Below the pieces are notes generated by a model that saw only the letters and a list, made by a program, of their open reading frames with translations, did not search any database and was not told where the DNA came from. DNA of 44,980 nt, taken from contig SKHI01000010.1 of the NCBI GenBank assembly GCA_007117065.1, forward strand, positions 1 through 44,980, read 5' to 3'. The position numbers and the translations under genes are program-made. This DNA comes from Candidatus Woesearchaeota archaeon (GTDB lineage: Archaea; Nanobdellota; Nanobdellia; Woesearchaeales; SKIA01). Below, piece after piece: positions 1 to 16,754 of this stretch. Positions within the stretch are counted from its first letter, which is position 1. Every line of letters begins with the position of its first letter.

Positions 1-306
1 ATATCCTTCTACTCTGTCATACTGAAACCATCCGACTTGATTTCCCTCTCCGAAAATAATTATTCTTGCATCTCGTTCTGTTATTTTAAAAAAAATGTTT
101 GTTCCGTTTCTGTCACCTGGGCATTCATTGTTGAGCAATAGACTTCCTCCTCCGCAAACAATTAAGTCTATACGCTGTTGTATTTCTTCAAGAGTATTAT
201 TTGGAGGATTTACTGCAGCGTATAAATCCATTACCACGACGAGGGATATGATCATAAGTGCTACAAACGCAAAGAGATGAAGCAATATGGATTCTCCATC
301 AGCCAT
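1..306 (-). CDS. Hypothetical secreted/membrane protein, truncated at its 3' end by the window edge (>=102 aa); last visible gene of the pilin-like operon
   Basis: Absent from the ORF track because there is no stop in the window. My reverse-complement translation from ATG 306-304 stays open to position 1: MADGESILLHLFAFVALMIISLVVVMDLYAAVNPPNNTLEEIQQRIDLIVCGGGSLLLNNECPGDRNG... It has a short polar N-terminus, then a ~22 aa hydrophobic helix. The start overlaps the upstream stop (299-301) by 8 nt. Confidence 0.5.
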   Translation of the reverse strand, partial: MADGESILLHLFAFVALMIISLVVVMDLYAAVNPPNNTLEEIQQRIDLIVCGGGSLLLNNECPGDRNGTNIFFKITERDARIIIFGEGNQVGWFQYDRVEGY

Positions 307-520
307 CTTCGCAACACACCCATCCTTCTCCGCAAAGAGTTTCGTCTATTCGTTCTGAACAGCCAAATGCTAATTCTACACACGTACCTCCGCGTATCTG
401 ACATTCTGCCTGTTGCCCTATCCCAGGCAGTGTTGAGACGCTCTCTTGTATATTCTGTATAACAATAAATCCTATTACTATAACAAGAAGTCCAAGAACT
501 ATAGCAACCCATTTTTCCAT
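299..520 (-). CDS. Small membrane-anchored six-cysteine protein (73 aa)
   Basis: ORF track. N-terminal hydrophobic helix MEKWVAIVLGLLVIVIGFIVI, then CQIRGGTCVELAFGCSERIDETLCGEGWVCC (C-x6-C-x6-C-x8-C-x5-CC). Co-directional in the operon, with a GGAG about 18 nt upstream. Confidence 0.6.
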   Translation of the reverse strand: MEKWVAIVLGLLVIVIGFIVIQNIQESVSTLPGIGQQAECQIRGGTCVELAFGCSERIDETLCGEGWVCCEDG

Positions 521-557
521 ATGTTTTTTGAGCAGTTCTCCTTTTTTAGTGTTTTCT

Positions 558-806
558 TTATTGGGCTGCTTCTCTCATGCAACAGTATCCTGTTTCACAT
601 GTTCCTATTCGTATATGCAGTAGGTTTCGTTGAGCGCACGGCTGATCGCTACAAAACCCTCCTTGGTTTTCACAATCACGAACTGTTTGTCTTCCATCAG
701 TAAATATGCCTGTAAAAAAAACGATGGATAAAATGAGTACAAGCATGCCTAACGCTATTGTTACCAGCATCGTAGTAGTTAATTCTGCACGTCTATTGTC
801 TAACAT
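558..806 (-). CDS. Prepilin-like mini-protein with C-terminal six-Cys domain (82 aa from internal ATG; the ORF track extends to 869)
   Basis: ATG at 806-804 gives MLDNRRAELTTTMLVTIALGMLVLIL: a basic N-terminus, A then E, then a hydrophobic helix. This start cuts the overlap with the upstream gene from 77 to 14 nt. The C-terminus is CENQGGFCSDQPCAQRNLLHIRIGTCETGYCC (C-x6-C-x4-C-x12-C-x4-CC). Confidence 0.55.
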   Translation of the reverse strand: MLDNRRAELTTTMLVTIALGMLVLILSIVFFTGIFTDGRQTVRDCENQGGFCSDQPCAQRNLLHIRIGTCETGYCCMREAAQ

Positions 807-1038
807 AACAACGGTAGCCCTCTTGACAACCTGTGGCGTCCGGAACTTCAGTGTATGATCCTGCAGCATCCATTGGTGGTTGCATCATACATTGTCCTCC
901 CATAACAGGACATGAACGAAGTCCCTCATTGATGTCTCCACCAGAACCCACTACGAGGATTGCTATAATTACAAGAACCAGGAGTGCTATTGCTGCTATA
1001 ATAACAAGATTTAATCCCATACTTTGTGCATGTTTCAT
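793..1038 (-). CDS. Prepilin-like mini-protein, four-Cys variant (81 aa)
   Basis: MKHAQSMGLNLVIIAAIALLVLVIIAILVV is class III signal-like. The C-terminus is CPVMGGQC...CQEGYRC. The N-terminal helix closely resembles that of 1040-1327. Confidence 0.65.
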   Translation of the reverse strand: MKHAQSMGLNLVIIAAIALLVLVIIAILVVGSGGDINEGLRSCPVMGGQCMMQPPMDAAGSYTEVPDATGCQEGYRCYVRQ

Positions 1039-1039
1039 G

Positions 1040-1327
1040 TTAAAATAATCGGGTACAACAGGTAAGAGGATTGTTTGAACTGCTCTGAGAACAACTACGA
1101 GGATTATTAGAAGTCATTCCTTCAGGACACAACTCGCCCTGAGGAACACAAGCATAATCAATCCATTCACGACCCTCCTGCCAAGATTCACAATGATTGA
1201 CTCCTACGTTTATTCCTTGTCCAGAATTCAGTACTAGAGCGATAAGAATAACCATGATAACCAATGCAATGGCAGCAATTATGATGACATTTAAACTCAT
1301 TCCCTGAGCTTTCTTATTTAACAACAT
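1040..1327 (-). CDS. Prepilin-like mini-protein with six-Cys domain (95 aa)
   Basis: MLLNKKAQGMSLNVIIIAAIALVIMVILIALVL has KKA then Q, then a hydrophobic helix. The C-terminus is C-x13-C-x6-C-x11-C-x10-CC. Confidence 0.65.
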   Translation of the reverse strand: MLLNKKAQGMSLNVIIIAAIALVIMVILIALVLNSGQGINVGVNHCESWQEGREWIDYACVPQGELCPEGMTSNNPRSCSQSSSNNPLTCCTRLF

Positions 1328-1358
1328 ACTTTATTTTTGAGGATAATAGTATTTAAAC

Positions 1359-1511
1359 CTAACTAAAAAGTTCTCGTATTCTATACAAAAGACTTCCTTC
1401 TGTCTGAATAGCTATTTGAGAATACATCACATAAATAAGAACGAGTGCAAGAAGTGCTCCAAGCGCCCAGGCAACTATTTTTTCCATTTCTATTGACGCT
1501 GTTTTGTTCAT
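1359..1511 (-). CDS. Micro-membrane protein (50 aa), below the ORF-track size cutoff
   Basis: Hand translation: MNKTASIEMEKIVAWALGALLALVLIYVMYSQIAIQTEGSLLYRIRELFS. ATGA overlap with the upstream stop (1508-1511). Single TM helix. The internal MEKIVAW resembles the MEKWVAI start of 299-520. Confidence 0.4.
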   Translation of the reverse strand: MNKTASIEMEKIVAWALGALLALVLIYVMYSQIAIQTEGSLLYRIRELFS

Positions 1512-2478: not shown

Positions 2479-2479
2479 G

Positions 2480-3298
2480 TTAGTTGACAAGTATGTTGCA
2501 GGAACTTCCTAAATGCGTTACTGGAATAATATCTACATATTGACAGGTGTTACCTCGTACCCACGACATACCGCTTCCTCTGCGTATAAATGTTATCGCG
2601 TAATTTTCTGACGCGTCCAACTGTGTTATCATATTCATATATTTAGGAAGATTTGAATCGCAATTTCCATATGTAGATTGCGTATTAAATAAGAATTCTT
2701 CGTATGTACCTCGTACTCCGAGAAGCGGCACTCGTTGTTGCAAGCTAGCCGATAGATCTATCGATACAGGATTACTCGCACTAAAGAATAGTTCTGCGCA
2801 AATAAAACATGTTGAGGCGCGACCAAAGAGATTTCCTGAGTCCAGTATATCTTTTGAACCTTCCAAAAATAAATCCCAACATTCAGCCAATTCGTGTACT
2901 AACGCATTTGACATACGCTCAGAAAAATCTGTTTGAGATGGGTTGAGCGTCCTAAAGGCCATATTTCCTTGTTCGTTTATAATTGGAAAAGAATAATCGC
3001 TCGTTCTTGACTCTTTACCAAAAAAAGACGCGTATACTTCTCTCGCCTCTGAATCTTCTACGAGAAGTATTTTTCTTGGACAATAAATTTCAAATGGATT
3101 CAACCAAGTTCCTGTTCCAAGTATAGGTGATAAACGCTCTCCAAAGAGTTTAAGTTGTATGTTGAGTTGACAAGCTGATTTTGCTGACTGCGCTGTGGCA
3201 CTCAGAGAAGTTACTCCGATGATAAAAAGAATAAGAATTACAGAGAGAAGAAAAAGTGTAAGGGTTGCTACTTTTTGTGTAACAAGTCCTTTTTTCAT
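2480..3298 (-). CDS. Pilin-like secreted protein (272 aa), paralog of 1672-2478
   Basis: MKKGLVTQKVATLTLFLLSVILILFIIGV. AGGAGGT Shine-Dalgarno at 3307-3313, 8 nt upstream of the ATG. ATGA overlap with the upstream micro-ORF. Confidence 0.75.
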   Translation of the reverse strand: MKKGLVTQKVATLTLFLLSVILILFIIGVTSLSATAQSAKSACQLNIQLKLFGERLSPILGTGTWLNPFEIYCPRKILLVEDSEAREVYASFFGKESRTSDYSFPIINEQGNMAFRTLNPSQTDFSERMSNALVHELAECWDLFLEGSKDILDSGNLFGRASTCFICAELFFSASNPVSIDLSASLQQRVPLLGVRGTYEEFLFNTQSTYGNCDSNLPKYMNMITQLDASENYAITFIRRGSGMSWVRGNTCQYVDIIPVTHLGSSCNILVN

Positions 3299-3402
3299 GA
3301 GAACATACCTCCTATACGCGTTTGTATGAATAGTGTTACGAGTATAATCACCAGTAAAACGAGCGTGAGCATAATAACTGTATTCATCATTTCTTGAGAC
3401 AT
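3295..3402 (-). CDS. Micro-membrane protein (35 aa), below the ORF-track size cutoff
   Basis: Hand translation: MSQEMMNTVIMLTLVLLVIILVTLFIQTRIGGMFS. Its stop forms ATGA with the next start (3295-3298). One TM helix. Confidence 0.35.
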   Translation of the reverse strand: MSQEMMNTVIMLTLVLLVIILVTLFIQTRIGGMFS

Positions 3403-3433: not shown

Positions 3434-3943
3434 TTATTGTGGATTGCAGAGGAAAAGAACTATTTCTACATTCCCCCCTCCTATTCCTTTTGAGAGAAGG
3501 ACTCTTCCTGCACGCGAGGTATCTTGTAAATGAATATCACATATTCCGCGAGTTGCCAACTCATTACATGCGGGGCCGCCAAAGATATCATCACATACTT
3601 CTCTTCGTATACTTAAAAAATATGTGGTTCCATGAAATTCGTCTATTGAACGCTCGAGCGCTTCTATAAACGCATTCCCATACAGATCGTTCTCACATCC
3701 GCCCATATTTCTGTTGGTCGCTTTCCAAATAAAATAATCACCTATACTGTGTCTTATACATTCATGATGAGTTGTTTTTATCCACGCATTGAGGACGTTT
3801 TGTGCGAATTGATCGTTTATGAATCGTTGTGTAGGATCCATTGTGGGTTGTTGTGTATTAAGGCTGAGAAAAAAGAATATCATTACTGTTATGAGCACCA
3901 TTGCTATGGCGAGTCCGAGTATTTCAAATTGTCCTTTTCTCAT
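3434..3943 (-). CDS. Archaeal type IV pilin-like protein (169 aa)
   Basis: MRKGQFEILGLAIAMVLITVMIFFFLSL: RKG then Q, then a hydrophobic helix, a canonical class III signal pattern. Six Cys in the mature part. ATGA overlap at 3940-3943. Confidence 0.75.
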   Translation of the reverse strand: MRKGQFEILGLAIAMVLITVMIFFFLSLNTQQPTMDPTQRFINDQFAQNVLNAWIKTTHHECIRHSIGDYFIWKATNRNMGGCENDLYGNAFIEALERSIDEFHGTTYFLSIRREVCDDIFGGPACNELATRGICDIHLQDTSRAGRVLLSKGIGGGNVEIVLFLCNPQ

Positions 3944-4476
3944 GTTCGAGTCTCCTGTGTTAGTATCAGCATTGCAAATGCGTGTGTTCGATGGATGGGA
4001 TCATAAAGGGTTATTGGAATACTTATTTGTTGGGTTGAGATAGGATTTTCTGATACGAAATCAAATAAGGTAATTTGATTTCCTACTGGGTGGATTACCT
4101 CAATTGTTGCTTTATAGTTTGCTCTTCGTTCAGCAAAGAATTTGTTTGTAAAATACGCTCGTTCTTGGGCAGTACCTTCTATTATCGACGCAAGTGCTCG
4201 CGCTCTGTACTCGTCTATACAGCTTAGCTCTCTTCTTGAGTCTATTGAACACTCTAATTCTGGAAGATTCATGATAACACGTCCTATTTCTAAGAGTTCC
4301 ATTCTGTTCATTCCTGCAAGCACTCCCTGTTCTGACTGAGCGGATCCTGTAGCATACCAATACAAACCAAATATCATGATAATTAAAAAGATAATAAGTA
4401 CTGCTACTATTTCTCCAAGCTGTATTTGTGCTTTAGTAGATTGACGCACAGCGATCCCCTCGTAATAGTCGTTCAT
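3940..4476 (-). CDS. Pilin-like protein (178 aa)
   Basis: ...STKAQIQLGEIVAVLIIFLIIMIFGLYWY. ATG 4476 overlaps the upstream gene by 44 nt. An in-frame GTG at 4449 would give MRQSTKAQ... and a 17 nt overlap, so the start is uncertain. Confidence 0.7.
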   Translation of the reverse strand: MNDYYEGIAVRQSTKAQIQLGEIVAVLIIFLIIMIFGLYWYATGSAQSEQGVLAGMNRMELLEIGRVIMNLPELECSIDSRRELSCIDEYRARALASIIEGTAQERAYFTNKFFAERRANYKATIEVIHPVGNQITLFDFVSENPISTQQISIPITLYDPIHRTHAFAMLILTQETRT

Positions 4477-5473
4477 TTAATTCTCGTACAGCAGAAACAC
4501 GCGCATATAGTTCTGAAAAATCGTATAAAGCGACAGCACTAGAGTCTAAAGTCATGCTTGTACGAAGATTTTCCATTCTGTTAACAAGATAGTTGTCAGT
4601 ACATGAAGAATCAGATTGTGAGGCCAAGTACGATTGTGTTAAAAAACTCATCCGTAATTCTTGTATAAACGCTTGTCTTTGTATTGCTGTTGTGAGTTTG
4701 TGTTGCATACAGTTCGCTCTTGCTGTCTCTGCCTGCCAAAGAAGTGCAAAAAGCATGCCCTCACCTACATAATGATATCCTCCTCGCCACTCTCCTTCTT
4801 CAAAAAAAGATATTTCTCCTCGCTCGAGAATGTTATTCTCATACCGTACGTGTATGTATTGCACTCCTGGTCGCGCGGTAATAGAGACAGGAGCACTATT
4901 TCCCATTGTTACATGGCGGATAGTGCTAAACGTGCGCGTATTGTCTGGAATCACTTCCACGACAAGTCGTTCATCCTGTATCTCTTGAGGAATCGCATCT
5001 AAGAATCGTTGCCTATTTTGTGCAGCAAGATTGTTAGTAGGCACTACGAGTAATTCTTGCGGGTTTGTTACGAGAAGAACATTTCCGATAGTAAACGGTG
5101 TTTGTATTCCTTTACTAAAGAGAATGAGTCTTCCTGTTTCCATGTCTCTTCCTGCTACGAGTTCTGTCTCTAAACTTCTTGTATAAGAGCCTATTTGTAA
5201 TTGACTCAGAAGAAGCACGGTATTTCCTTCGCGTATTGCTTCACACGTAAGACGTATATTTGTTTGAGGGATGTTTGTTGCAAGTGACGAGTCTGGACTT
5301 GCTTGTTGCGCAGAAAGTATCGTATTTACTTGCTCCAGAGCATTTCGTTCTAGTCGTTCTTGCGCCGCGTTTGCTTGTCCGCTTGCTATCATAAAGAATA
5401 TTGTAAGAAGCATTCCTCCAGCAAAGAGTATAAACATCCATACAAATACGAGTGCCATTGCTTTTTTGTTCAT
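4433..5473 (-). CDS. Pilin-like/N-terminally anchored secreted protein (346 aa)
   Basis: MNKKAMALVFVWMFILFAGGMLLTIFFMI. ATGA overlap at 5470-5473. I recognise no family in the mature domain. Confidence 0.75.
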   Translation of the reverse strand: MNKKAMALVFVWMFILFAGGMLLTIFFMIASGQANAAQERLERNALEQVNTILSAQQASPDSSLATNIPQTNIRLTCEAIREGNTVLLLSQLQIGSYTRSLETELVAGRDMETGRLILFSKGIQTPFTIGNVLLVTNPQELLVVPTNNLAAQNRQRFLDAIPQEIQDERLVVEVIPDNTRTFSTIRHVTMGNSAPVSITARPGVQYIHVRYENNILERGEISFFEEGEWRGGYHYVGEGMLFALLWQAETARANCMQHKLTTAIQRQAFIQELRMSFLTQSYLASQSDSSCTDNYLVNRMENLRTSMTLDSSAVALYDFSELYARVSAVRELNERLLRGDRCASIY

Positions 5474-6021
5474 GGCGCTTCAAGTACTCTTGTTGTTTGT
5501 CCTTGACCTTGTAATCGTACTCGTATGTTTCCTCTTTGCGCATCTACACACAGTATGCTATCCGCAGCTGTTTGTATGGGTGCTGATTCTGTACTAAAAC
5601 GCTCTATTGGCTCTACAATTCCTGTTGTGGTTACAGTCCATACATTTGTTTGATCTCCTCGGAGCTCTTGCGTGTTCGTTTGTATGCTTGAGATAATAAT
5701 ATTTTGTGTAGTCTGTCTAACCGTTCCAGAAAAAGAAGTAGGACCAAGACCTTGATTATCTGTAAGAATGTTTCTTCCTGCAAAACAGACTTGTTCTACT
5801 TCACATGGAACGCCCAGTTGTACCACTGTGCTTGTTCCTATTCCTCTATTTCGTTGTATTTCGTTAAGCAGTTGTGTTCCGAATTGTATTCTTTGTGTAT
5901 CGCATCTTCTTTCGTTAAGGTTTTGTAATTCTGAGTAGCCAAAAAGAAGCACTAGTCCAATGATAATAAGGCCTATTACGAACACAAGTATTTGCATGAT
6001 GAGTTGTGCTTTTTTGTTCAT
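5470..6021 (-). CDS. Archaeal type IV pilin-like protein (183 aa)
   Basis: MNKKAQLIMQILVFVIGLIIIGLVLLFGY: KKA then Q, then a hydrophobic helix. The start lies 5 nt after the stop of the 1198 aa gene. Confidence 0.75.
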   Translation of the reverse strand: MNKKAQLIMQILVFVIGLIIIGLVLLFGYSELQNLNERRCDTQRIQFGTQLLNEIQRNRGIGTSTVVQLGVPCEVEQVCFAGRNILTDNQGLGPTSFSGTVRQTTQNIIISSIQTNTQELRGDQTNVWTVTTTGIVEPIERFSTESAPIQTAADSILCVDAQRGNIRVRLQGQGQTTRVLEAP

Positions 6022-6026
6022 GGTAC

Positions 6027-9000
6027 TTATTCGAACTCTTTTACGAGCTGTTCTCGTTTCGATTTTCGCTCCTCTTCTCGTTTCTTTTTTGCTTCTTCGC
6101 GTAGTTTTGATGTTGCTAAATCAATTTCTGGTTCTGTTTTTTGTTGCTGTAAGATAGTTGATTGTTGTGTTGGTTGATAGGTAGTTTGTGGCGGTCTAAA
6201 AGAGGTTCTACTCGTACTCTCTTGTTGTTTTTCATAATAGATGTATCCTCCTCCACCTGAAATTAAAAGTAAGCCTAAGATTATGAATATGAGTGGGAAT
6301 ACCGAGCGTGATTCTTGTATAGGGAATGGTTCGTCTAATCTTGGCTGTTGTAAAGGCCTATCTGTACAGGTTCCTGTTGAACAAATAAGACTCCCTTGAC
6401 AATCAGAGTCAGTTCTACATCCTTGTCCTTGTGCACACGCGTTTGGACAGCTTCCACCACAATCAATGCCTGTTTCATCACCATTACGGATACCGTCTGT
6501 ACACGATGGCTCTGCACATATCCCTCCTCTACAGCTTCCTGAGGCACAGTCAAAATTGGTAACGCACTTCTTTCCTACTTCACATTTTGGACAGAATGCT
6601 CCTCCACAATCTATATCTGTTTGTCCTTGATTTTGTTCTCCGTTAGAACAAAGTTGTTGTTGATGCTCCAAGTCGCTTCCTATTGGAGGACATGCTGGAC
6701 AACTTCCGCCGCAGTCGACACCTGTTTCATCAGCGTCCTGTATTCCGTTTGAACAATGTGAGAGATATTCTGGTATCGTCACCCGTATCTCTTGCTGTGC
6801 AATATTTCCAGCATGATCGCTTACTTCAACACAAATTCTACTCGTCTCCGTTATCGTAAAGCGCTCTCCAAATCGTGTCATGCTATCCTCTGCTGCCGGA
6901 AATGTGTGCTCACTATACTCGCACGCTGCGTTTGGAGCGACTATTCCTTTTCTGTATGTGCTCGCGCAAGATATGTCGTCTTGACAAATTACTTGCAACG
7001 TTTTTGACTGCACTGTCTCATTTATTGTGTGTAGTCGCGCTATAGGTGGTACCGTATCACAGGAACCTGTTTCTCTTGATTGTGCTCGAACAGATATAAC
7101 TTTAGGTCCTGCTTTGTTATTATTTTTATCAATTGCCCATATGCGTAGCTCGTATTCTTCTCCAGAGACGAGTTCTAGGGATGTTAATGTGTGTGGAAGG
7201 CTTTGTACAGTATAATTTATTCCTATGAATTGAATAATTATTTCTTCAATGTTGTTTGGAATGTTATCTGTTACAAGAGCGCTTACTGTATAACTGGTTA
7301 ATCCACAGGTAAGTTGTTCTCCGTTGAACTCTATTGTCGGAGGAGTTATATCTACTATGAAGTTTTGTTCTTGTGAGGTGGTTTCTTTTGCTAAATATTC
7401 TTCTCTACACTCTGGCGTTATCTCCTCTCCACAGAATTCTATAAAGCAACTGTCTGGAGGATTTTCTCCTCTACAGGGATTTGGAGGACATGCTTCACAG
7501 AGTGTTTCTCGTTCTGAGCAAACGAATACGAAATCATAGACTCCTTCTGAAAATATTTGAGTGGCTCTATGAGTAAATCCTGTCTGAGAAAAAAGAGGTA
7601 TCTCAGTATTTGAAAAGACTGCTCTACAGTTTGCTGGTCTTGTCGTGTCTGCACGTAAGGTTACTTGTCTTTCTTCAACGATTGTTTCTAAAGGAATTAT
7701 TTGATTTGTTACCGGATATTCTGCGTGTACAGTTATTTGATTAGTTGCTTTTCTTTGGTGCGGATTCTCACATGTTATTGTTATTGTTTTCCCGTTTGGC
7801 GGGATGGAAAATTCTATTTCTGCTGTTCGTGCAAGTGGCGTTCTTCCCTGTGCTGATTCTCCTTCATAACACTCCACATATTGATCTGCTTCTATTAAAA
7901 TTGTTGAGTGAGGATTTTGTAATGAGGTTACTATTGCAGGGTTTGCGCTAAGAGTGAATGTGGGTTCTGGTAAATCATATAGTATTCGTAAATTTTTTGT
8001 TGTTGATTGATCAGTAAAGTCTGTACAGGTTACTGAGAAATACGTTGTTTCTCCTCGTTGTATTCCTATCAATTCTATGGCTTCATGAAGAGTGTGCCTG
8101 ATTGCTACTTGATTTGGAGTAAATTGTATTTCCGGGTTTTGAGTAAGAACACAGTTGGAAGGAAATTGTGTTTGTAATGCAAGAGTAAATGGTTCTACAG
8201 CGACGCCGTTTCTTGGAGAGACTATTGATATGTCTTGCGGACGAGGATATGCGCACGCCTCAGAATTCGGCGCTTGTATGACAGTCTGCATAGGATTTCC
8301 TACCACTCCAAGTTCGTTTATTGCACGTACATGAAGTGTTTGCCCTTGAAGACCAATTGGGTGTCTTATGGGCTCTCCTGTATACGCTCGAAGCGCTTCT
8401 TGTTGTACTGCTCCTGCTTGTATATACTGTATAAGAAGGTATCTTGTGTTCTGTGGAGATTGAGCTGTAATAACAGTAGTATCTTGACAACTGTACGCTT
8501 GTACGCTTTGTAATTCCAGCGGCGTCTGTTGCACGCGTACAGGATGAGGTATAGTTATTGTCTCCTCACCATACACACATGTAACGCGTATATTGTTTGT
8601 TGTTCCTGTAAGCACGAGTGCTTGTTGATGTAACGTTTGTTGTTGTAATGCTCCAAGACGTTGTTCACCTTGTTGATCATGTGTACAACGCGCAGGTTTA
8701 TTTGTTTGTACAATGAGTTGATAACTAAACGTCTGTGTTATATCAGGACTTAATATACGCATAGTAAATGGTGTTGATTGAGGGTGTGTTGCTACAATGT
8801 ACTCTCTTCTGGGAAGAATTGTTCCGTGTGCGTTCGTACATACAAGCGCAATTGTTGTTCCTCCTTGTGCACTAAATGTATGCGTATTTCTGTCTATGCT
8901 GTGTTGATTGGTTCCTTCCACACGACAGGTGCTTTGTTGTTCTGTTTGTATTGTTATTGTAGTATGTTCTTGGGGTAGACTTATGGGAGGCCACTGTGTG

Positions 9001-9623
9001 ATGTGTGCGCTTGTGAGAGCTATTTGTTCTTGTTCAGACCAGCCTATTTGCGCAATACGAAGACCAGGTATATCCTCACAACGCAAATCTACATAAAAGA
9101 GTTCTCCTCGTATCAGGGGAAACATATTTGAAAAGTCCGGTACTGAGTGTGCACGGTGATTGTTATCTGATACGAGTCTATTCCAGGAGTTAATGTCGTT
9201 TGGTGAATGCGGTCTCCAGTAACAGCGAGTACTTATTGCAGTAGACACTTCTAAAGAATACGAACCTGCTCTACTCATTCCTCCTTGTGATGGCTCTACG
9301 AGTGTTATTTGTGGTTGCGATACAGTAATGAACAGCTCGTGGACTGCAGGGTTATTTAGTTGATCCGCTGCTTGTAGGAGATATCGATGTGTTCCGTAGA
9401 GAAGGAGTATTTGTTGCATGGATACAGTATTTTCTTGTGCAGTTACTTGTGGGAAAAATACTCCTGGGTGTTGATATAGTATTGCTTGCGGGTTCATTAT
9501 TGTCTCTTGATAGTCCGCTCGTATCGTATTATGTGGTTCTATGGGAAGTATTTCTATTGCCAGTGCTGATTGTACGAACACAAAAAAAAGGCATATGGAT
9601 ATACTTATTCGTAAGAGGTTCAT
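6027..9623 (-). CDS. Giant type I membrane surface protein (1198 aa): Sec signal, tandem Ig-like modules, Cys-rich repeats, TM helix, K/E-rich tail
   Basis: Signal MNLLRISISICLFFVFVQSALA. At least six ~90-100 aa modules each have a Cys pair (e.g. TITIQTEQQSTCRVEG...TIALVCTN; TLALQTQFPSNCVLTQ...YFSVTCTD). D-x-AGN/KNNN strand motifs. C-terminal TM VFPLIFIILGLLLISGGGGYIYY (6234-6302) and tail ...LREEAKKKREEERKSKREQLVKEFE. Confidence 0.9.
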   Translation of the reverse strand: MNLLRISISICLFFVFVQSALAIEILPIEPHNTIRADYQETIMNPQAILYQHPGVFFPQVTAQENTVSMQQILLLYGTHRYLLQAADQLNNPAVHELFITVSQPQITLVEPSQGGMSRAGSYSLEVSTAISTRCYWRPHSPNDINSWNRLVSDNNHRAHSVPDFSNMFPLIRGELFYVDLRCEDIPGLRIAQIGWSEQEQIALTSAHITQWPPISLPQEHTTITIQTEQQSTCRVEGTNQHSIDRNTHTFSAQGGTTIALVCTNAHGTILPRREYIVATHPQSTPFTMRILSPDITQTFSYQLIVQTNKPARCTHDQQGEQRLGALQQQTLHQQALVLTGTTNNIRVTCVYGEETITIPHPVRVQQTPLELQSVQAYSCQDTTVITAQSPQNTRYLLIQYIQAGAVQQEALRAYTGEPIRHPIGLQGQTLHVRAINELGVVGNPMQTVIQAPNSEACAYPRPQDISIVSPRNGVAVEPFTLALQTQFPSNCVLTQNPEIQFTPNQVAIRHTLHEAIELIGIQRGETTYFSVTCTDFTDQSTTKNLRILYDLPEPTFTLSANPAIVTSLQNPHSTILIEADQYVECYEGESAQGRTPLARTAEIEFSIPPNGKTITITCENPHQRKATNQITVHAEYPVTNQIIPLETIVEERQVTLRADTTRPANCRAVFSNTEIPLFSQTGFTHRATQIFSEGVYDFVFVCSERETLCEACPPNPCRGENPPDSCFIEFCGEEITPECREEYLAKETTSQEQNFIVDITPPTIEFNGEQLTCGLTSYTVSALVTDNIPNNIEEIIIQFIGINYTVQSLPHTLTSLELVSGEEYELRIWAIDKNNNKAGPKVISVRAQSRETGSCDTVPPIARLHTINETVQSKTLQVICQDDISCASTYRKGIVAPNAACEYSEHTFPAAEDSMTRFGERFTITETSRICVEVSDHAGNIAQQEIRVTIPEYLSHCSNGIQDADETGVDCGGSCPACPPIGSDLEHQQQLCSNGEQNQGQTDIDCGGAFCPKCEVGKKCVTNFDCASGSCRGGICAEPSCTDGIRNGDETGIDCGGSCPNACAQGQGCRTDSDCQGSLICSTGTCTDRPLQQPRLDEPFPIQESRSVFPLIFIILGLLLISGGGGYIYYEKQQESTSRTSFRPPQTTYQPTQQSTILQQQKTEPEIDLATSKLREEAKKKREEERKSKREQLVKEFE
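6360..6758 (-). repeat. Three tandem protein-level Cys-rich repeats, C-x-[ND]-G-x-[QR]-[DN]-x-x-[EQ]-T-x-[VI]-D-C-G-G-x(1,2)-C; the last two are followed by C-x4-DC-x-SG-x-C-x2-G-x-C modules
   Basis: HCSNGIQDADETGVDCGGSCPACP / LCSNGEQNQGQTDIDCGGAFCPKCEVGKKCVTNFDCASGSCRGGICAEP / SCTDGIRNGDETGIDCGGSCPNACAQGQGCRTDSDCQGSLICSTGTCTD. Coordinates were counted back from the stop codon. Confidence 0.8.
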
Positions 9624-12553
9624 TCTGCGCTAAACTCCGGCCGTTCTGGTCCTGTAAAGTCTTCCTCAATACGAGTAAGAGTGAGCGGTGTCGCTTGAAG
9701 TCCGTTTACATCCACACAGATAAATCTTGTTTGCCCGCTTCCTGTAAGCAGCTGGTTTTGTGCAGTGAGTGTTTCTCCGTTCATGGTTATTCGCTCTACA
9801 GGCGCTGTGAATGTTCCTGGTGTTTCTTCATCTCCATGAACAGGAGTTTTTCTACAACGCACAGATATTGATAACCCTTCTTCAGGTACTGCTACTGTTT
9901 GGCTTTGCGTAATGAGTGTTTCTTGTCCGTCTAGAATTGTTGTTATTTCTATTCTTGGCGGTTGCGCGTCTACTGCAAAAGTGATATCTGGTCCTCTTGC
10001 TGCTTCTGTTCCGAAGAAACATCGCGTAGGATAACGATAAAACCCTGACTCAGTAATTGTCTTTGTTCGCGTATATGCTTGCCACGGTCCTGAATATCCG
10101 TTAATAATAATGTTTTGCGGTTGTCCAGTTGGTTGCATAGTAATCCATTCGGTTCCATCTCTGTATTGACAAATTCCTTCCAGTTCCCCTCCTACTGCCT
10201 TATGTATTCCTAGCGTTCTTGTTCCGGGAGGATATGCGGGGTTTGTCAGGAATGGTAAGCTTCTTTGCACGCGTGCGTCAAGATGTATGGTTACTGGAAG
10301 GTCTTTACGAATGGTCGTTGTACCTTGTTTACAAATTACTTCATATGAATATGTTCCTTCTTGATGGGTGTTTATGAATTGGAATCGGTCATTACTTGTT
10401 CCTGCGTGCATTGTTGTTCCTGATAGTTTTAGTTCACAAAATGCTCTTCTATTTGTTTGCCATGAAATACGTATTTGGCTACTATTAGCCCATGGATAAT
10501 TTTGTATTACTTCATAATTGGGCTCTTCTATAAACAGTAATCCTTCAGGAATCAGCAAGGTTACCTCTCGTACTTCTTCTCTGTTATCATTCATATCTTG
10601 GCTAAAGTATCGTAAACAATATTCTCCAGGTTCTGTTATATCTGAAAGATTAAATATTCCTCTACTTCGGTCTACCAATCCTGTGCTTTCAAACTCATCA
10701 TGTTCTAATCCCTCACATCTTTGTTCGTACACTCGAGCATATGTTCGAAATACTTGGACGTTATCTGTTGCTGCGAAGCGAATGATTGGTTGTACACTTT
10801 CTATTGCGTTCGTGTTTGTGAGAAGTGTTGTTTGCGGGTTTTGAAAATCAGTGAGTCGTGCTCGAGTTTGACTAAGACCCGATGGATCTGCTCGACAAAC
10901 ATTGTTACTCCAGATACACTTTGGAAGGTCAAACCGATTCTGGCTTTCTCGTATGGGTATGTTTGTTCTTCTATCCAGTTGAAATGGTGTTCCTCCGTGA
11001 CAAGCATCAGGTGTTTCGAATTGGTCGCAGAAAAGCATGTCGTTTCTGTTTCGACATCTATTATCAAGCCACATACATTGTTCTCCTAGAGAGTCGCATG
11101 TTTGTTCTGAATATGCTTGACTACACTGTATGAGTTCCGGTCTGGAGCTGACACAGAAATCTACTTCATTATTCCACTCGCAACCATGTCGTACTAAGCA
11201 TGGATTGTTATCGCATGCTCGTTGAGAATTGTACGTGCTACAACTCGTTACTTGTGAGCAGCTGTTATATTCTTGAAGTATCGTTGTGGTAAAGTCAAGG
11301 TAACAGAGTCCAAAGCGCTCCTGACCAATTTGAAAACGTTCTAATTCGCTACAGAGAACTGATTCATGTTCAGTATTTCCTATAGTAAAGCTGATTCTAT
11401 TTTCACTTACTTCTCCAAAACTTTGGTGTGCTTTATTACAATCTGAACAGGGTACTTCGTTTACGCAGAGTGCGCGAACATCTCCTGCTTCACTCGCTGT
11501 AACGCACTTTAATCCAGTTCCACAAGATATTTCTTGGGCAATGTTTTGTAGGTTACAGTTTATTGCAAGATTTGCGTTTTGACAGTACGCCACTACTCCG
11601 TCCGTACATGCAGCATCTCCTGGGTTGAATGTTCTTTGGATGGTTCTTACTTGTTCTTGACCAGAAATACTATAGGTTACAGAAAGGATTACTTCGTACT
11701 CTGTTTCAGCATTAAAGTTCTCTACAACAATAGTGTCACTCATTGCTCCAGGAGTGAATGCGTATACCCCTGGAATAAACAAGGAGATAGACTGTATTTC
11801 TAAGGCACATGTTTGGGGTATAGTATAGGTTATATTTGCATGCGGGAAACCATGAACATTGCGTACTGTCAGTCCAAGTTGTGGTATCTGCTCACATTCT
11901 GTTTCGGTGCACGATTGTTCTTGCGGATTACAGGTTCCTGGTTCGTAATCATTAACAGGGTCGTATAGGCATGTACATGCCGGCGTGCACTGTTGTGTTC
12001 TTCCAGTCGGAGCTTGCGGACAATGAGTTATATCCGTGCCGTCACAGATAATGCCTTGGTCTGGGTATGCTATGCCGTCTCCACACAACTCTCCTATATC
12101 TCCTGGTGGCGGTGTTGGTGTTGTTGGACAGGTTGTTCCTTCAACGATGCTTCCCATACAACAAACAAATCCCGAAGTAATAACTTCCATTCCACACAAA
12201 CAGTTTGTTCCTCCTTCAGAACAATTAGGTATTGCTGGTGGTGGTGGACAATCATCTTCTCCAAATTCGCCTGCTACACTATTACAAAACGCTCGTGTCA
12301 CATCAAGTATAGTCTCCCCGGTTCCCAGGGTGCAACACCCTTCTGTACAAAGATTGATTCCTTCCTCTTGTCCAGGGCCGTAATAAATACCTCCTTGCTC
12401 GGCACATACCTCTTGGCCAATGTTTTCTATACATGCTCCTTCTACAATACAGTAGCTTGGAAGGATGATTATTTGTTCATCGAGCGCAGTTACAAAAGAG
12501 GGTGCTAGTAGGAGCATTATTGCCAGCACCCATAGTATTTTTGTGTGTATCAT
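9620..12553 (-). CDS. Large Cys-rich secreted protein (977 aa)
   Basis: Signal MIHTKILWVLAIMLLLAPSFVTALD. The N-terminal ~220 aa are very Cys-dense (CC, CLCG, VCCMG) with a PTTPTPPP linker. The C-terminal third has Cys-paired Ig-like modules like those of the 1198 aa neighbour (FCELKLSG...YEVICKQG; ICQYRDG...PTRCFFG). ATGA overlaps at both ends. Confidence 0.9.
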   Translation of the reverse strand: MIHTKILWVLAIMLLLAPSFVTALDEQIIILPSYCIVEGACIENIGQEVCAEQGGIYYGPGQEEGINLCTEGCCTLGTGETILDVTRAFCNSVAGEFGEDDCPPPPAIPNCSEGGTNCLCGMEVITSGFVCCMGSIVEGTTCPTTPTPPPGDIGELCGDGIAYPDQGIICDGTDITHCPQAPTGRTQQCTPACTCLYDPVNDYEPGTCNPQEQSCTETECEQIPQLGLTVRNVHGFPHANITYTIPQTCALEIQSISLFIPGVYAFTPGAMSDTIVVENFNAETEYEVILSVTYSISGQEQVRTIQRTFNPGDAACTDGVVAYCQNANLAINCNLQNIAQEISCGTGLKCVTASEAGDVRALCVNEVPCSDCNKAHQSFGEVSENRISFTIGNTEHESVLCSELERFQIGQERFGLCYLDFTTTILQEYNSCSQVTSCSTYNSQRACDNNPCLVRHGCEWNNEVDFCVSSRPELIQCSQAYSEQTCDSLGEQCMWLDNRCRNRNDMLFCDQFETPDACHGGTPFQLDRRTNIPIRESQNRFDLPKCIWSNNVCRADPSGLSQTRARLTDFQNPQTTLLTNTNAIESVQPIIRFAATDNVQVFRTYARVYEQRCEGLEHDEFESTGLVDRSRGIFNLSDITEPGEYCLRYFSQDMNDNREEVREVTLLIPEGLLFIEEPNYEVIQNYPWANSSQIRISWQTNRRAFCELKLSGTTMHAGTSNDRFQFINTHQEGTYSYEVICKQGTTTIRKDLPVTIHLDARVQRSLPFLTNPAYPPGTRTLGIHKAVGGELEGICQYRDGTEWITMQPTGQPQNIIINGYSGPWQAYTRTKTITESGFYRYPTRCFFGTEAARGPDITFAVDAQPPRIEITTILDGQETLITQSQTVAVPEEGLSISVRCRKTPVHGDEETPGTFTAPVERITMNGETLTAQNQLLTGSGQTRFICVDVNGLQATPLTLTRIEEDFTGPERPEFSAE

Positions 12554-13584
12554 GGTAACGATGTTGAGCAGCTTAAACTGAACCTTGTTTCTATACCGTG
12601 TAGGTCTTTTATAGTTATCGGATTATAAGACTCGCAATGATTTGGTCCTGCGTTTTCATTCACCCTAAATGCGTATCTATTTTCTGTCAGGTGTGAAAAA
12701 TATTGTTTTTCTCCGATTGTTGAGGAAACAAATAGTTCATCTCCATCTAGTGAGATGAGAGTCACTGTGCATCCATCAACACAACTTATTAGTCCATTAG
12801 GAGATACTATGTCATTGTCTTCGTTTACGATAAGTATTCCTCTATTTGCGAGACGTATTGTGGTAACGTGTTCTCCTGCTACAACTACTGAGTATCTTTT
12901 TGTTCCGTCTGACTCATTTCCTATATAACTAAATTCGGTCGTTCTACATTGATCACAGCCTTGCAATGCTATTGATCTTGTCTCATTTAGGAAGTGAGAA
13001 GTGTTTGTGAGTTCTTGCTGTAGGAGTGCGCGAATTCCTGCCCACGCGCTAAATAAGTGCGTTTGTTCTGTTCGCGTTATATCATTCCAGCGCACTAATA
13101 TGCTATCTCGCTGTATGATTACTTCTGGCAAAGAGCTTATTTCGGTGCATCTCTGCATGTGGTCGCGTATTGCGGCTTGCATGCTTGTTTGTATGCTTGG
13201 TTGATTGGCTGTTTCTATACCATAATTCATTATTCCGCAGCTCGCCAGGGGTACGCTTTGTAAAGCGTTTGCTCCTGTTTTTGAACAGAGTGGAACAAAA
13301 TTTCCTCTCCCCATAATATATATTTCTGAATCTTCAATATACTTTGTTGGGATATGCGCTCCTCGTGCATCAGTGGTAATCACTCCTTCATCTCGTAATG
13401 AAGCTAGTGCTTGCTGCGTGCTTGCTGCAAGACAGCTTCGAAGAAAATTTTCTTCAAGACCGGCTATCTCTACCGGAGCAGTTTCTTCTTGTCTCGACTC
13501 AGATACAATAAGTATGAGTACGGATACAGACAGTAAGAGTGTTAAGCCGATGATGAGAAACATGCTTATTTGTGCTCGTCTCAT
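12550..13584 (-). CDS. Archaeal type IV pilin-like protein with large head domain (344 aa)
   Basis: MRRAQISMFLIIGLTLLLSVSVLILIV closely resembles the class III signal consensus (R-G/A-Q-I-S-hydrophobic). ATGA overlaps at both ends. Confidence 0.8.
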   Translation of the reverse strand: MRRAQISMFLIIGLTLLLSVSVLILIVSESRQEETAPVEIAGLEENFLRSCLAASTQQALASLRDEGVITTDARGAHIPTKYIEDSEIYIMGRGNFVPLCSKTGANALQSVPLASCGIMNYGIETANQPSIQTSMQAAIRDHMQRCTEISSLPEVIIQRDSILVRWNDITRTEQTHLFSAWAGIRALLQQELTNTSHFLNETRSIALQGCDQCRTTEFSYIGNESDGTKRYSVVVAGEHVTTIRLANRGILIVNEDNDIVSPNGLISCVDGCTVTLISLDGDELFVSSTIGEKQYFSHLTENRYAFRVNENAGPNHCESYNPITIKDLHGIETRFSLSCSTSLP

Positions 13585-14765
13585 CTTGTTGTTCTATCCT
13601 GTATAATCCGGGACCACTCACGCGCAGAATAACAAAGTGGTTCTTCTTGTACACCAATTATTTCTTTTCCTTGTGGACAGAGCGAACCCGCTACGAAATC
13701 AACAGAAGCAATATTTGTTGTTGAACTCCCTATCATGCTTCTTCGTTGTTCAATAAAGAACTGTCCTGCTGCTGTAGAGGAAACTTCTGCGTTTGACCGA
13801 CCAAATAATCCACCAAGCCAACTCCAAGCTCGTCGCACCCCCGTACCTCCTAAGTGATCCGCATTCGTGTATATGATTGCTCTTGGTGAACTGCTTTCAG
13901 CAAAAGATAATTCCGCTTCCTTGAGATATGGAAATGACCTTCCCAGATCCACAGATTGATTTATGAAATCATCATAGTCTATTGGCGCGTTGGGATGCAT
14001 TATTCTTATTTGGTCAAAAAGATCTTGTCCAGAGGCATCTTCTTGTAAGAATGCACCTATAAGTATTCTTCCCGACTGTTGGAACGTAAGCTGGCAATAC
14101 CCTTGACTATCCGCATCAGGTCTATTTATAGAATCTGTAATATCAGTGCTACAATGCAATGTGAACGGAGTGTTTTCAGCAACATTACCGAGACGAAGAA
14201 TTTCATTCGCTAGAGGAATTAATTTACTACCCCAAGTTGCGCTCGTAGCTCCTTCTTCAAGGACGCAAAGATAGTCAGACTGTACAGTGCCTACAGGAAC
14301 ACACCCTGTTGTTACTGCGCACAAGTGTGCTGGACAATGCGAAGTACGTAGACTTGGAGGAGGACGTAATTTTTCTGTTGCGCGAACTACTTCCCCATCA
14401 TGGCAAGCAAATCGTTCATAATTAACACCTGCCGCAGTTCCATTCATAATAAGGGTTTCGACATCACTTCTCCAAACCCATGAATCTTCATAATATACGC
14501 ATGTACGAGTTGAACCAGCAGCTAGTTCTGTACATACAGAATTTTGTTGAATAAAATTATCATCTACATCCCAGATGGTTCCACACAGATGCACTATTCC
14601 ATCAACAAGAAGTCCGCTTGCTGTTGTATTACCTCCTGGAGGGTGCATTCCAGTCAGATTATTCGTTTGGGGAATAGGCGGAAACTGTAGCGCGAAAACA
14701 GATCCTACAAAAAAAATACTTAACAAAAGTATTGTGCTTATTCGGAGAAAAATCGTTTGGTTCAT
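13581..14765 (-). CDS. Secreted hypothetical protein (394 aa)
   Basis: Sec-type signal MNQTIFLRISTILLLSIFFVGSVFALQ. Multiple Cys. ATGA overlaps at both ends. No family recognised. Confidence 0.8.
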   Translation of the reverse strand: MNQTIFLRISTILLLSIFFVGSVFALQFPPIPQTNNLTGMHPPGGNTTASGLLVDGIVHLCGTIWDVDDNFIQQNSVCTELAAGSTRTCVYYEDSWVWRSDVETLIMNGTAAGVNYERFACHDGEVVRATEKLRPPPSLRTSHCPAHLCAVTTGCVPVGTVQSDYLCVLEEGATSATWGSKLIPLANEILRLGNVAENTPFTLHCSTDITDSINRPDADSQGYCQLTFQQSGRILIGAFLQEDASGQDLFDQIRIMHPNAPIDYDDFINQSVDLGRSFPYLKEAELSFAESSSPRAIIYTNADHLGGTGVRRAWSWLGGLFGRSNAEVSSTAAGQFFIEQRRSMIGSSTTNIASVDFVAGSLCPQGKEIIGVQEEPLCYSAREWSRIIQDRTTR

Positions 14766-16705
14766 TCTTGAATCACCCCTGTTCGTGAGCGAGTTTCCAT
14801 AGGTATTGGTGTTTCTTGATTAAAAATAAACTGCCCATTAACACATGCTGAAGTTCCGCTTGGATCAATCCAATTAGAACTAAAAGAACAACATCGTTCT
14901 GTCAAATACCCTGCTCCATCTTCACCACAGAACCTTAGTGGACTCTCGCTCCACGTATTATCCAGCTCGCAGTAGAGACCATATTCTTTGTTGAAGCCAC
15001 AACCATCTGAATTTGATTCAGTACACGTAATACATTCCGCCCACTGTATGTCACCTGTTACAGGTTCTGAGTAGCAGATATTTCTTCCCACGTATAAGTA
15101 GCTTCTCTCCGAGAGATCCGGAGGATTTTCACAAATAAGCCATTTATTCGCATGAATATAAGGATGAATGATAACTTCTTCTGTCGAATATCCGTATTCG
15201 TTCCAGTTGTGACCTTTCGGTGGTTTTAGTTTATTGTTTTGACAATAATATCGTTGTGTTGGGTGCGGTTTATTGTCAAACGCAGATCCTTCTGTACAAC
15301 AGTAGTTTGAATCATCATCGGGTAATCGTTCGCCATCTAAACCATTTAGCGTACACGATACTGGCTTCCTATCCTTCCATATGTACTTACCAACATCAGT
15401 CAGAGAACAAACACGCACGTCCCCTGTATCTGTTGTTACCACACTATTAAATGTCTTAGCAGAACAACAATCCTGGTGCGATTGAATAGCATTGCCAAGC
15501 CAGTCTGTTTGTAAATAGGGATGGTTCTTGCAAGCCCATTCATTCTTTTCATCTTCATTTTTCACTAAATCAAACGCCACAGGCCCATACACATTTATAA
15601 TATCAAATGCCTCTGACAAAAGCATATTTGCTGTGCTTCCCGGTCGAACTGGCCGAACAGTTATGTCAATATTACCGCCTCTGTTTCCATCACGCAACAT
15701 AAACATCGATAAGAAGTACCATCCTTGTCTTAGCTCCTCTGGTGGAGGAAGTTGCAGATTACTGTTTCCTGACCGTAAATTGTCATCTGAATACCACGAA
15801 GATGGTATTCCGGCTCCGTCAGGCATCGTAGATGCTTTACGTTGAAAATCCCACTCCTGAGAAACATCCACATAAAATAGTTGTGCAGCATATTTTCCAT
15901 AATTAGACTCTATTCGTATATTAAACGGATTCACTGTTGGGTCCTCCAAGTAGAACCATGTGGAAAACGATTGCTGTGAAGGACGAGGATTTGTGTTCAC
16001 CTTTGGATGGGTTCGAAGATTAGTGGCGATATTCATTAGCTCTGTCGAGGAGCTATTCAATATTAAAATAGAATCATCGCTTCGTGAAATACCAATGTGA
16101 TTAGTATTTTTATGTTCTCGCCAGACCCACAAACCACCCATCCCAGAGCGAGGAGTTAGACTTTGATCATCATCACAAATAACATTACGACTCGTTTCTA
16201 TAACTCTATTCCCACAAAGACAAAAATCGCTCCCTCCATCTCTCCAAGAAGGCATAAAACTCACTATTATTGGACACATGGGCGGCTGCATCGTCCCTAT
16301 TCCTTCGTAAGGGTTATATTTCCTATTACCGCGCCTGTGTTCCTCCAGTATTTGTTGAGCATTCCAACTCGCGACTGCTCCAGAGCCATTATATTGACTA
16401 TGTCGAGGATCAATGGAACGTTCACCTTGATTATTAGAATAATCAACAAGCTCCATAGATTCACAACTATCTAAAGGTAGTGTTTCGGATCGCGCTCTGG
16501 CCTGACCACTTCCACCAATTGGTCTTGACCGTCTAAAACTTATACACGTTCCGAATTCAGGAATGTTTGTTTCAGACAACAATGGAAAACCAGTAATCTC
16601 ACTGTACAACTCAAAAACATCCCTATTCGAAGCTTCTGCTTGTGCAGGTATAAGAAGAAGTATTGCTATCGATAACAAAAGAAAAACGAGTAATCGCGCG
16701 TTCAT
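14762..16705 (-). CDS. Secreted Cys-rich hypothetical protein (647 aa), first gene of the operon
   Basis: Signal MNARLLVFLLLSIAILLLIPAQAEA. Cys-rich N- and C-terminal thirds flank a Cys-poor central region. TATA box 21-30 nt upstream of the ATG. Confidence 0.85.
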   Translation of the reverse strand: MNARLLVFLLLSIAILLLIPAQAEASNRDVFELYSEITGFPLLSETNIPEFGTCISFRRSRPIGGSGQARARSETLPLDSCESMELVDYSNNQGERSIDPRHSQYNGSGAVASWNAQQILEEHRRGNRKYNPYEGIGTMQPPMCPIIVSFMPSWRDGGSDFCLCGNRVIETSRNVICDDDQSLTPRSGMGGLWVWREHKNTNHIGISRSDDSILILNSSSTELMNIATNLRTHPKVNTNPRPSQQSFSTWFYLEDPTVNPFNIRIESNYGKYAAQLFYVDVSQEWDFQRKASTMPDGAGIPSSWYSDDNLRSGNSNLQLPPPEELRQGWYFLSMFMLRDGNRGGNIDITVRPVRPGSTANMLLSEAFDIINVYGPVAFDLVKNEDEKNEWACKNHPYLQTDWLGNAIQSHQDCCSAKTFNSVVTTDTGDVRVCSLTDVGKYIWKDRKPVSCTLNGLDGERLPDDDSNYCCTEGSAFDNKPHPTQRYYCQNNKLKPPKGHNWNEYGYSTEEVIIHPYIHANKWLICENPPDLSERSYLYVGRNICYSEPVTGDIQWAECITCTESNSDGCGFNKEYGLYCELDNTWSESPLRFCGEDGAGYLTERCCSFSSNWIDPSGTSACVNGQFIFNQETPIPMETRSRTGVIQE

Positions 16706-16725
16706 ATGCTACATATCAAGAATAT

Positions 16726-16735
16726 TATTTATAAA
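16726..16735 (-). promoter_or_regulatory. TATA box (TTTATAAATA on the minus strand) of the pilin-like mega-operon; purine-rich BRE-like stretch just upstream
   Basis: Lies 21-30 nt upstream of ATG 16705 in the only intergenic gap (16706-16754). The spacing implies a leaderless or near-leaderless transcript. Confidence 0.5.
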
Positions 16736-16754
16736 CATTTGTTTTTTTTCGCTT

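Follow-up and report, generated by a model that had tools for sequence, protein, structure and literature searches.

A gene cluster conserved across Woesearchaeota links pilin-like proteins and giant adhesin-like proteins to murein hydrolases

What would an archaeon build with a long, unbroken run of genes for prepilin-like proteins and giant cysteine-rich secreted proteins? Such a run occupies the minus strand of contig SKHI01000010.1 from a Candidatus Woesearchaeota archaeon, from position 16705 down to position 1; the whole contig, 44,980 bp, is the window analysed here. To our knowledge, no member of the Woesearchaeota has been cultured and their hosts are not known. We found that the run is part of a cluster shared across this phylum, and the best reading of the cluster is a conserved cell-surface apparatus that serves as an attachment appendage. 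The more specific proposal, that these are the structural genes of a type-IV-filament-like appendage targeting bacterial murein, with its assembly machine encoded elsewhere, is in our judgement an even call. An earlier sequence-only reading of this DNA had proposed a surface filament for attachment; the surface appendage still stands as the best reading, whereas the filament itself is something we infer.

All open reading frames (ORFs) of the chain lie on the minus strand, and all nine of the 4-nt ATGA stop/start overlaps previously listed were present (14762, 13581, 12550, 9620, 5470, 3940, 3295, 1672 and 1508); the remaining junctions are gaps of 1–37 nt or short overlaps. The chain had been put at at least 16.7 kb and at least 19 genes, which is true, and the cluster is larger still. 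A contig from the European Nucleotide Archive (L001), 99.93% identical over 11,327 bp, carries the cluster past position 1 of the window and contains five same-strand genes at its positions 11022–15604 (g204, g252, g150, g181 and g733). Because this contig extends the chain beyond the end of the window, the full cluster comprises 23 genes and ~21 kb. A hydrophobic N-terminal segment is present in 23 of 23 products and is directly preceded by a [KR][GA] motif in 13, in line with the 12–14 prepilin-like N termini that had been counted. The four proteins of 647, 394, 977 and 1,198 amino acids (aa) have Sec-like N termini, as had been noted, but they are grouped at the 5′ end and not interleaved with the pilin-like proteins. 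The mature domains, which had not been assignable to a named family, stayed unassigned: the cluster products encoded in the window gave no match to Pfam (E ≤ 0.1) or NCBIfam (E ≤ 1).

The gene set is not peculiar to this genome; its core is widespread. In a 5.8-billion-protein collection we found three homologues of g346 (34–40% identity) and thirteen of g95, and seven lineages contained colinear one-to-one orthologues of the cluster genes with 22–56% identity. In close lineages whose downstream flank was covered, the cluster always ended in an M23-containing hydrolase, followed by an RPA-like gene. A profile of the small subunits recovered 3,157 clusters at 50% identity from 1.84 billion representative proteins, all of ~80–100 aa, in which a six-Cys head comes after the shared pattern M-x-K-K-[GA]-Q-G-[IL]-S-x-N-V-I-I-I-A-A-I-A-L.... 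Using the small pilin as an anchor, we collected 79 loci of up to 20 kb each, nearly all from metagenome-assembled genomes (MAGs) of Woesearchaeota or Nanoarchaeota, and detected the families in them with local profiles built from orthogroups. A Woesearchaeal species genome counted as informative if its upstream flank spanned 6 kb or more, and all 52 such genomes preserved the order g183, g346, g178, g169, small pilin, the core consisting of a giant protein, four mid-size pilin-like proteins and then small Cys-knob pilins. Conservation of gene order in relatives, which had been proposed as a check, was thus observed both in the seven lineages and in the core of 52 of 52 loci. The entire cluster was present in Bin_55, the closest relative in GTDB, and the core was present on the complete Woesearchaeal chromosome OY970338.1; the three 5′-most genes, g647, g394 and g344, are clade-specific. 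Pattern-based scans of GTDB genomes and JGI metagenomes for g346 and g733 found nothing, but we rejected the rarity that this implied as an artefact of sensitivity, as the local profiles found the families in at least 53 genomes, including Bin_55.

The window also encodes TBP, MCM and a SUF operon (SufBCDS, TBP and MCM being recognized by eye only), and its MCM is closest to those of Woesearchaeota MAGs, with 75% identity to Bin_55, which bears out the earlier assignment to a DPANN-like archaeon. Many MAGs labelled 'uncultured Methanosarcinales archaeon' (L005, L008, L093, L095, L100 and others) carry a Woesearchaeota-like MCM together with the cluster, and these labels are probably wrong. One cluster-bearing lineage, L089 (Logan SRR7943839), comes from Lake Solenoe, a lake of the Novosibirsk region that was sampled for its sediment and for a floating cyanobacterial community (PMC7807203).

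At the level of sequence, the prepilin (class III) reading of the N termini is well supported. We computed motif shares in the 79 loci over homologues with a hydrophobic segment and observed [KR][GA] ahead of the helix in 71–95% of homologues, depending on the family, and in 138 of 145 homologues of the small pilins. Among motif-bearing homologues, position +1 was Gln in 66–93% for seven families. This residue was found in 77% for g183, in 92% for g169 (41 homologues, with a buried Glu at +3 in 92%) and in 93% for g178 (45 homologues, with a buried Glu at +6 in 90%). Neither +3 nor +6 is the +5 position at which Epd-type (EppA-processed) pilins carry their Glu, and the small pilins lack the residue. 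The class III reading is made stronger by these data because the motif is conserved across loci and not read from a single sequence. The core families concerned lie next to one another in the window (minus strand, as for every cluster gene and promoter-like box given below): g183 (5470–6021; MNKKA/QLIM...; 54 loci), g346 (4433–5473; MNKKA/MALV...; 53 loci), g178 (3940–4476; STKA/QIQLGE...; 56 loci) and g169 (3434–3943; MRKG/QFEILGLAI; 58 loci). Two further core families encode N-terminally anchored proteins of 272 aa (g272a, 2480–3298; 45 loci) and 268 aa (g272b, 1672–2478; 51 loci).

The small pilin-like protein g95 (1040–1327) is the candidate major subunit and combines an invariant helix with a variable 6-Cys knob. 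Mean pairwise identity among 14 orthologues was 82% in the helix versus 39% in the head, a contrast that suggests helix–helix packing in a polymer. An AlphaFold2 (AF2) model of g95, with a mean predicted local distance difference test score (pLDDT) of 81, showed a 35-residue helix (residues 9–43) and a small beta/disulphide knob. Two small Cys-knob pilin-like paralogues follow, g81 (793–1038) and g103 (558–806; an 82-aa form, RRA/ELTT...), and then g73 (299–520), a small protein with a transmembrane (TM) segment and a Cys knob that lacks the [KR][GA] motif. The window closes with g204 (1–306), the 5′ part of a 204-aa N-terminally anchored protein truncated by the contig end. Two micro-proteins precede g95: g62 (1508–1675), of 55 aa and pilin-like (MNKKG/MEV...), and g50 (1359–1511), of 50 aa with a TM segment.

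The heads of the small pilins (n = 58) gave weak defensin-like Pfam matches (AtDEF-like in 10 of 58, best 1.5e-5; Defensin_beta in 4), and the best small Foldseek match of g95 was a coral SCRiP peptide, which was not significant. The head is likely to be a disulphide knot; a defensin-like reading, for which the weak Pfam matches are the sole evidence, was not adopted. Weak Flp1_like matches were seen in just 2 of 58 small-pilin relatives.

The cluster has more than one promoter-like box. Scanning 17.4 kb of the coding strand gave only four TATA-like matches, of which three, all in larger intergenic gaps, precede an ATG by exactly 30 nt. These are P1 (16728–16735, TTTATAAA) ahead of g647, P2 (3425–3432, CTTAAAAG) ahead of g35, with a similar box in six lineages, and P3 (1350–1357, TTTAAATA) ahead of g95. 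P3 is kept in seven lineages even though the proteins are only ~50% identical, and because this box is conserved, the small subunit genes have a conserved promoter of their own. The sequence-only reading had described a single upstream TATA box and a single transcription unit; P1 does exist, but there are two further boxes, each 30 nt from its ATG, and because two of the three promoter-like boxes are conserved in orthologous loci, the cluster is not one transcription unit. The gene behind P2, g35 (3295–3402), encodes a 35-aa single-TM micro-protein whose edge forms the ATGA at 3295; it is conserved in six lineages and is called as a gene in L084, L088 and L090.

The 5′ part of the cluster encodes the large secreted proteins. 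The giant g1198 (6027–9623; 1,198 aa), with homologues in 41 of 79 loci, has a Sec signal, an Ig-like region, three Cys-rich 'C.NG..D..ETG.DCGG.C' repeats, a C-terminal TM anchor and a Lys/Glu-rich tail. Beside it, g977 (9620–12553; 977 aa) encodes a secreted, adhesin-like protein with 56 Cys and homologues in 16 loci; the Ig-like matches of the giant proteins, g977 and g1198 included, are weak. Farther upstream lie g344 (12550–13584), a 344-aa pilin-like protein (MRRA/QISMF...) with 10 Cys and orthologues in L083 and L085; g394 (13581–14765), a 394-aa secreted protein with a Sec-like signal and 12 Cys, 26% identical to a 547-aa protein of L085; and g647 (14762–16705), a clade-specific 647-aa secreted protein with a Sec-like signal and 24 Cys, without a Pfam match and without homologues in the 79 loci. 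The repeat of g1198 (window 6354–6755) is a module common to hundreds of proteins; 539 stretches in GTDB genomes were confirmed by tblastn, mostly in Myxococcota and Saprospiraceae, with single cases in one Saccharibacteria MAG and one Altiarchaeota MAG, and no Pfam model matches it. A genome scan with the g1198 alignment caught this Cys-rich repeat, mostly in Myxococcota, and yielded no upstream context.

The last gene of the cluster connects the pilin-like proteins to murein. This gene, g733 (L001 13403–15604), encodes a 733-aa protein with a prepilin-like N terminus that starts MRKGAAGILMPIF, and the next gene downstream encodes an RPA-like OB-fold protein. We found three domains in g733 that score above their Pfam cut-offs: Peptidase_M23 (residues 171–248, 2.9e-13, 50.2 bits versus 28.7), Glyco_hydro_108 (GH108; residues 353–437, 3e-20, 73 bits versus 21.2) and PG_binding_3 (residues 441–516, 1.9e-7, 31.6 bits versus 24.6). 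By domain content g733 is a peptidoglycan hydrolase, which would point to bacteria as the target. Its N-terminal ~125 aa consist of a class-III-like leader, a helix and a conserved 'IG..Q' region, and this carrier module gave strong scores in 41 loci.

The C terminus of the carrier differed by lineage. In the clade of the window it is M23+GH108+PG_binding_3, without an SLT domain, whereas Bin_55 has M23+SLT. We observed SLT in L091, L092, L093, L118, L138, L167 and L169 (the L167 carrier, 14498–18040, also has a TPM domain beside SLT), SLT+M15_4 in L115, M15_4+Amidase_3 in L096 and M23 alone in L110, L120 and L125; an SLT domain also occupies the terminal-gene position in L150. PDB searches and tblastn against phages labelled one additional carrier, that of L099, as amidase_2-like. 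Among 103 further downstream ORFs with N-terminal anchors, murein hydrolases made up most of the recognized Pfam domains (Amidase_3 in five, Amidase_2 in four, Muramidase in two, and 3D, M15/VanY, NLPC_P60 and Glucosaminidase); the other matches were two amino-acid permeases, CBM9, Sortilin/BNR, fn3 and Metallophos.

The gene content, its conservation, the motifs and the hydrolase domains are what we observed; leader cleavage, assembly into a filament and a bacterial target are inferred. Taken as an appendage, the cluster would most likely work as follows. About 18 of its proteins, those with prepilin-type (class III-like) N termini, would be parts of the appendage; the small helix-plus-Cys-knob subunits with their own promoter would be the likely main filament subunits, and the mid-size proteins would act as components of the 'minor pilin' kind. 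The giant Cys-rich Ig-like proteins would be of adhesin type, one of them anchored in the archaeal membrane, and the terminal prepilin-like carrier would display enzymes that cut bacterial peptidoglycan. Subunits would enter the membrane by their N-terminal helix and be trimmed by a prepilin peptidase, and an ATPase and a platform of the type IV filament kind, with genes in another part of the genome, would build a pilus or pseudopilus from them. The filament tip and accessory proteins would then attach to a bacterium and breach its murein wall at that spot.

Several results weigh against this scheme. Foldseek found no PDB fold match for the g95 model, with nothing at E below 2. The sole mid-size protein that was modelled, g346, gave an unreliable AF2 model (four sequences, pLDDT 47), which leaves a pilin fold putative. 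Searches of the PDB with g1198 and g977 and with profiles of g169, g178 and g183 returned only noise. The sequence-only reading had recommended a search with PF04021 and archaeal pilin models; the pilin models of Pfam, PF04021 included, and of NCBIfam matched no cluster product, and DUF361 likewise matched none. A start such as MNKKA followed by a TM helix also fits an uncleaved signal anchor. As had been reported for the 45 kb, a Pfam scan of window ORFs found no T2SE-type ATPase, PilC/FlaJ platform or A24/FlaK/PibD peptidase, and motif scans of 79 genomes out to 10 kb from the small-pilin gene (1.2 Mb in total) likewise found no assembly ATPase, platform or prepilin peptidase. The hydrolase also raises doubts. 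In four g733 orthologues the HxxxD of M23 is invariant and its HxH is replaced by an invariant H-L-D, and the catalytic Glu of GH108 (in the N-terminal EGG-type motif) is present in three of four and lost in L083; because of these two changes, the activity of both domains is uncertain. Finally, the carrier of L109 (17822–19981) bears a purple-acid-phosphatase-like domain, and PDB searches and phage tblastn found no recognizable wall hydrolase in those of L122, L157, L146 and others.

It is possible, if on balance doubtful, that no filament exists and that the N termini are uncleaved signal anchors of a membrane-tethered ectoprotein complex on the archaeal surface. In such a complex the C-terminally anchored giant and its N-terminally anchored partners would hold adhesins and hydrolases at the face that touches bacteria or debris. 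Basic residues followed by a TM helix suit a type II anchor, g1198 is itself membrane-anchored, and the cluster has neither a match to a pilin family or fold nor an ATPase, platform or peptidase nearby in the window or the 79 loci. However, anchoring would work without an invariant small residue at −1, a +1 Gln or a conserved Glu in the helix, and yet these are kept phylum-wide, and the greater conservation of the helix than of the head in the small subunit suggests packing in a polymer. The distance from the machinery, which the sequence-only reading had treated as surprising, is also normal for archaeal pilin genes, as seen in Methanococcus and Haloferax (PMC3875500). We consider it improbable that a short pseudopilus, like that of type II secretion, expels the giants and the hydrolase as diffusible bacteriolytic weapons or necromass enzymes without forming a stable organelle. 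Many minor-pilin-like proteins do accompany secreted giants and a hydrolase, and in other archaea peptidoglycan hydrolases have been shown to kill bacteria (PMC12352652), but g1198 retains a membrane anchor and no secretion ATPase was found nearby in the 79 loci. In addition, the hydrolase looks like a built-in subunit and not like cargo, because it bears a prepilin-like helix and a conserved carrier module.

The hydrolase could also be imagined to open a murein-like wall of the archaeon itself for passage of the appendage, as LytF, VirB1 or the gonococcal M23 protease do in bacteria, and wall hydrolases are common in bacterial pilus and secretion loci, as far as the parts of the sources available to us indicate. 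We know of no archaeon that makes murein, however, and SLT, GH108 and MurNAc-L-Ala amidases are murein-specific. The accessible parts of the Woesearchaeota literature read such enzymes as directed at bacteria (PMC8204110; PMC9723730), and we regard the own-wall explanation as very improbable. Least probable of all, to the point that we rejected it, is an integrated virus or mobile element, with a lysin and fibre-like giants that would have been misread as genes of the cell. The hydrolase domains are indeed like those of phage endolysins (phrog_315, 6e-27) and are ~30% identical to lysins of phages of proteobacteria, but the hydrolase alone matched PHROGs: no other product matched a functionally annotated PHROG family, and the products scanned included no detected capsid, terminase or integrase. 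Moreover, the downstream neighbour with an RPA-like OB-fold is constant in the seven close lineages where the flank is covered, and the core is conserved phylum-wide. With these alternatives set out, the attachment appendage remains our best reading of the cluster.

Other features of the window, and one neighbour in other genomes, lie outside this argument. A second mini-cluster occupies 33242–37301 on the minus strand. It contains a 98-aa small Cys-knob pilin-like gene (37005–37301), paralogous to g81 and g103; a 1,123-aa ORF (33808–37179), whose true start is probably an internal MLRILTLFF... signal peptide; and a gene whose 189-aa product has both a signal and a TM segment at its C terminus (33242–33811). 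The giant of this mini-cluster has no Pfam match and no homologue near the main cluster of other genomes. At 20592–22526, 24002–25423 and 43851–44600, the window encodes a secreted 644-aa Beta_propel (PF09826) protein and two membrane proteins with weak Peptidase_M50 matches (site-2 protease-like, HELGH). In two loci only, a homologue of presenilin/signal peptide peptidase adjoins the cluster on the minus strand (L119 11586–12548 and L117 11525–12487). With eight TM segments, the motifs YD and GGGD and a match to PDB 4hyc (E 3e-5), this homologue belongs to the GxGD aspartyl proteases but is not a prepilin peptidase; scans of the 79 loci turned up no other GxGD protein.

These observations tie scattered reports of murein-degrading enzymes in Woesearchaeota to one colinear pilin-like cluster, and the literature that we covered, which was incomplete, contained no paper that places murein hydrolases at the end of a conserved cluster of this kind. 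They also define over ten protein families that Pfam and NCBIfam lack although Woesearchaeota carry them widely. The presence of the cluster in every informative genome examined provides concrete, testable candidates for contact with bacteria: subunits for cryo-electron tomography and proteomics, enzymes for assays with defined peptidoglycans, and a marker cluster for co-occurrence and host prediction. A broader proposal, which we offer tentatively and believe somewhat less than we doubt, is that Woesearchaeota as a whole possess a dedicated, type-IV-filament-like organelle for attacking bacteria, with interchangeable murein hydrolases and giant adhesins at its tip or base, by which the archaeon would hold on to bacterial cells and get through their walls. 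If true, parasitism or predation of an archaeon on bacteria would for the first time have a described molecular apparatus, and the type of hydrolase domain might predict the wall chemistry of the host.

How does the cluster compare with known systems? In the EppA pilins of Methanococcus the leader ends in Gly and is followed by a +1 Gln and a conserved Glu, and the major pilin is tiny (PMC3875500), and a 'system 1' of type IV filaments has been reported in DPANN (bioRxiv 10.64898/2026.04.22.720090). Like the Epd pilus genes of Methanococcus maripaludis, which belong to system 1, the cluster groups several minor pilins with accessory or adhesin-like proteins, its candidate major pilin is likewise very small, and its leaders end in Gly/Ala with a +1 Gln and, in g169 and g178, a conserved Glu at a position other than +5. 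The Epd ATPase and platform are encoded at a separate locus (PMC3875500; bioRxiv 10.64898/2026.04.22.720090), and none lies near the present cluster either. Unlike the Epd genes, however, this cluster has no DUF361 or Class_IIIsignal match and no EppA-type peptidase within it, has about twice as many genes, and includes 6-Cys-knob small subunits, giant Cys-rich proteins and a peptidoglycan hydrolase. The type IV pilus loci of Thermoproteales (Makarova et al. 2016, PMC4858521) similarly combine a large protein with a C-terminal TM anchor and a secreted adhesin-like one, many diverse minor pilins and conserved Cys in almost all components. By contrast, an ATPase and a PilC-like gene alongside are the defining feature of those loci, and there is none nearby here in 79 genomes; they lack a wall hydrolase, and there is no detectable sequence homology.

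Bacterial minor-pilin/PilY1 tip complexes and modular pilins such as Streptococcus sanguinis PilB offer a parallel: according to the parts of the source available to us, a pilin-type N terminus displays a functional module, and a group of minor pilins carries an adhesin that is not itself a pilin (PMC8179133). Our carrier module may be likened to the modular pilins by the sequence of its N terminus, not by fold. It differs in belonging to an archaeon and in displaying murein hydrolases that are swapped between lineages, an architecture not mentioned in the accessible parts of that source. Saccharibacteria of the candidate phyla radiation are also comparable, in that an ultrasmall symbiont finds and holds its bacterial host with type IV pili, as the available portions of the reports describe (PMC9894109; PMC11623550); their pili, unlike the present system, are bacterial type IV pili with complete, recognizable machinery, and have no homology to this cluster.

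A point of contact within the phylum is the set of large extracellular lytic transglycosylases of Woesearchaeota and Pacearchaeota, from which the accessible portions of two studies conclude that the cells attach to bacteria or attack them (Castelle et al. 2021, PMC8204110; Vigneron et al. 2022, PMC9723730). Large secreted SLT proteins also occur in the relatives studied here, and those of 981–1180 aa that end the cluster in L091, L092, L093, L118 and L167 are probably such transglycosylases. The text of those two studies available to us names no gene cluster for the enzymes and does not mention 'pili' or 'pilin', whereas here the enzyme closes a conserved cluster of pilin-like genes and, in the clade of the window, is M23+GH108 and not SLT as in fam00969 (PMC8204110). 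Throughout the Woesearchaeota, the cluster thus joins murein hydrolases, which are interchangeable, to pilin-like subunits and giant proteins of adhesin-like character.

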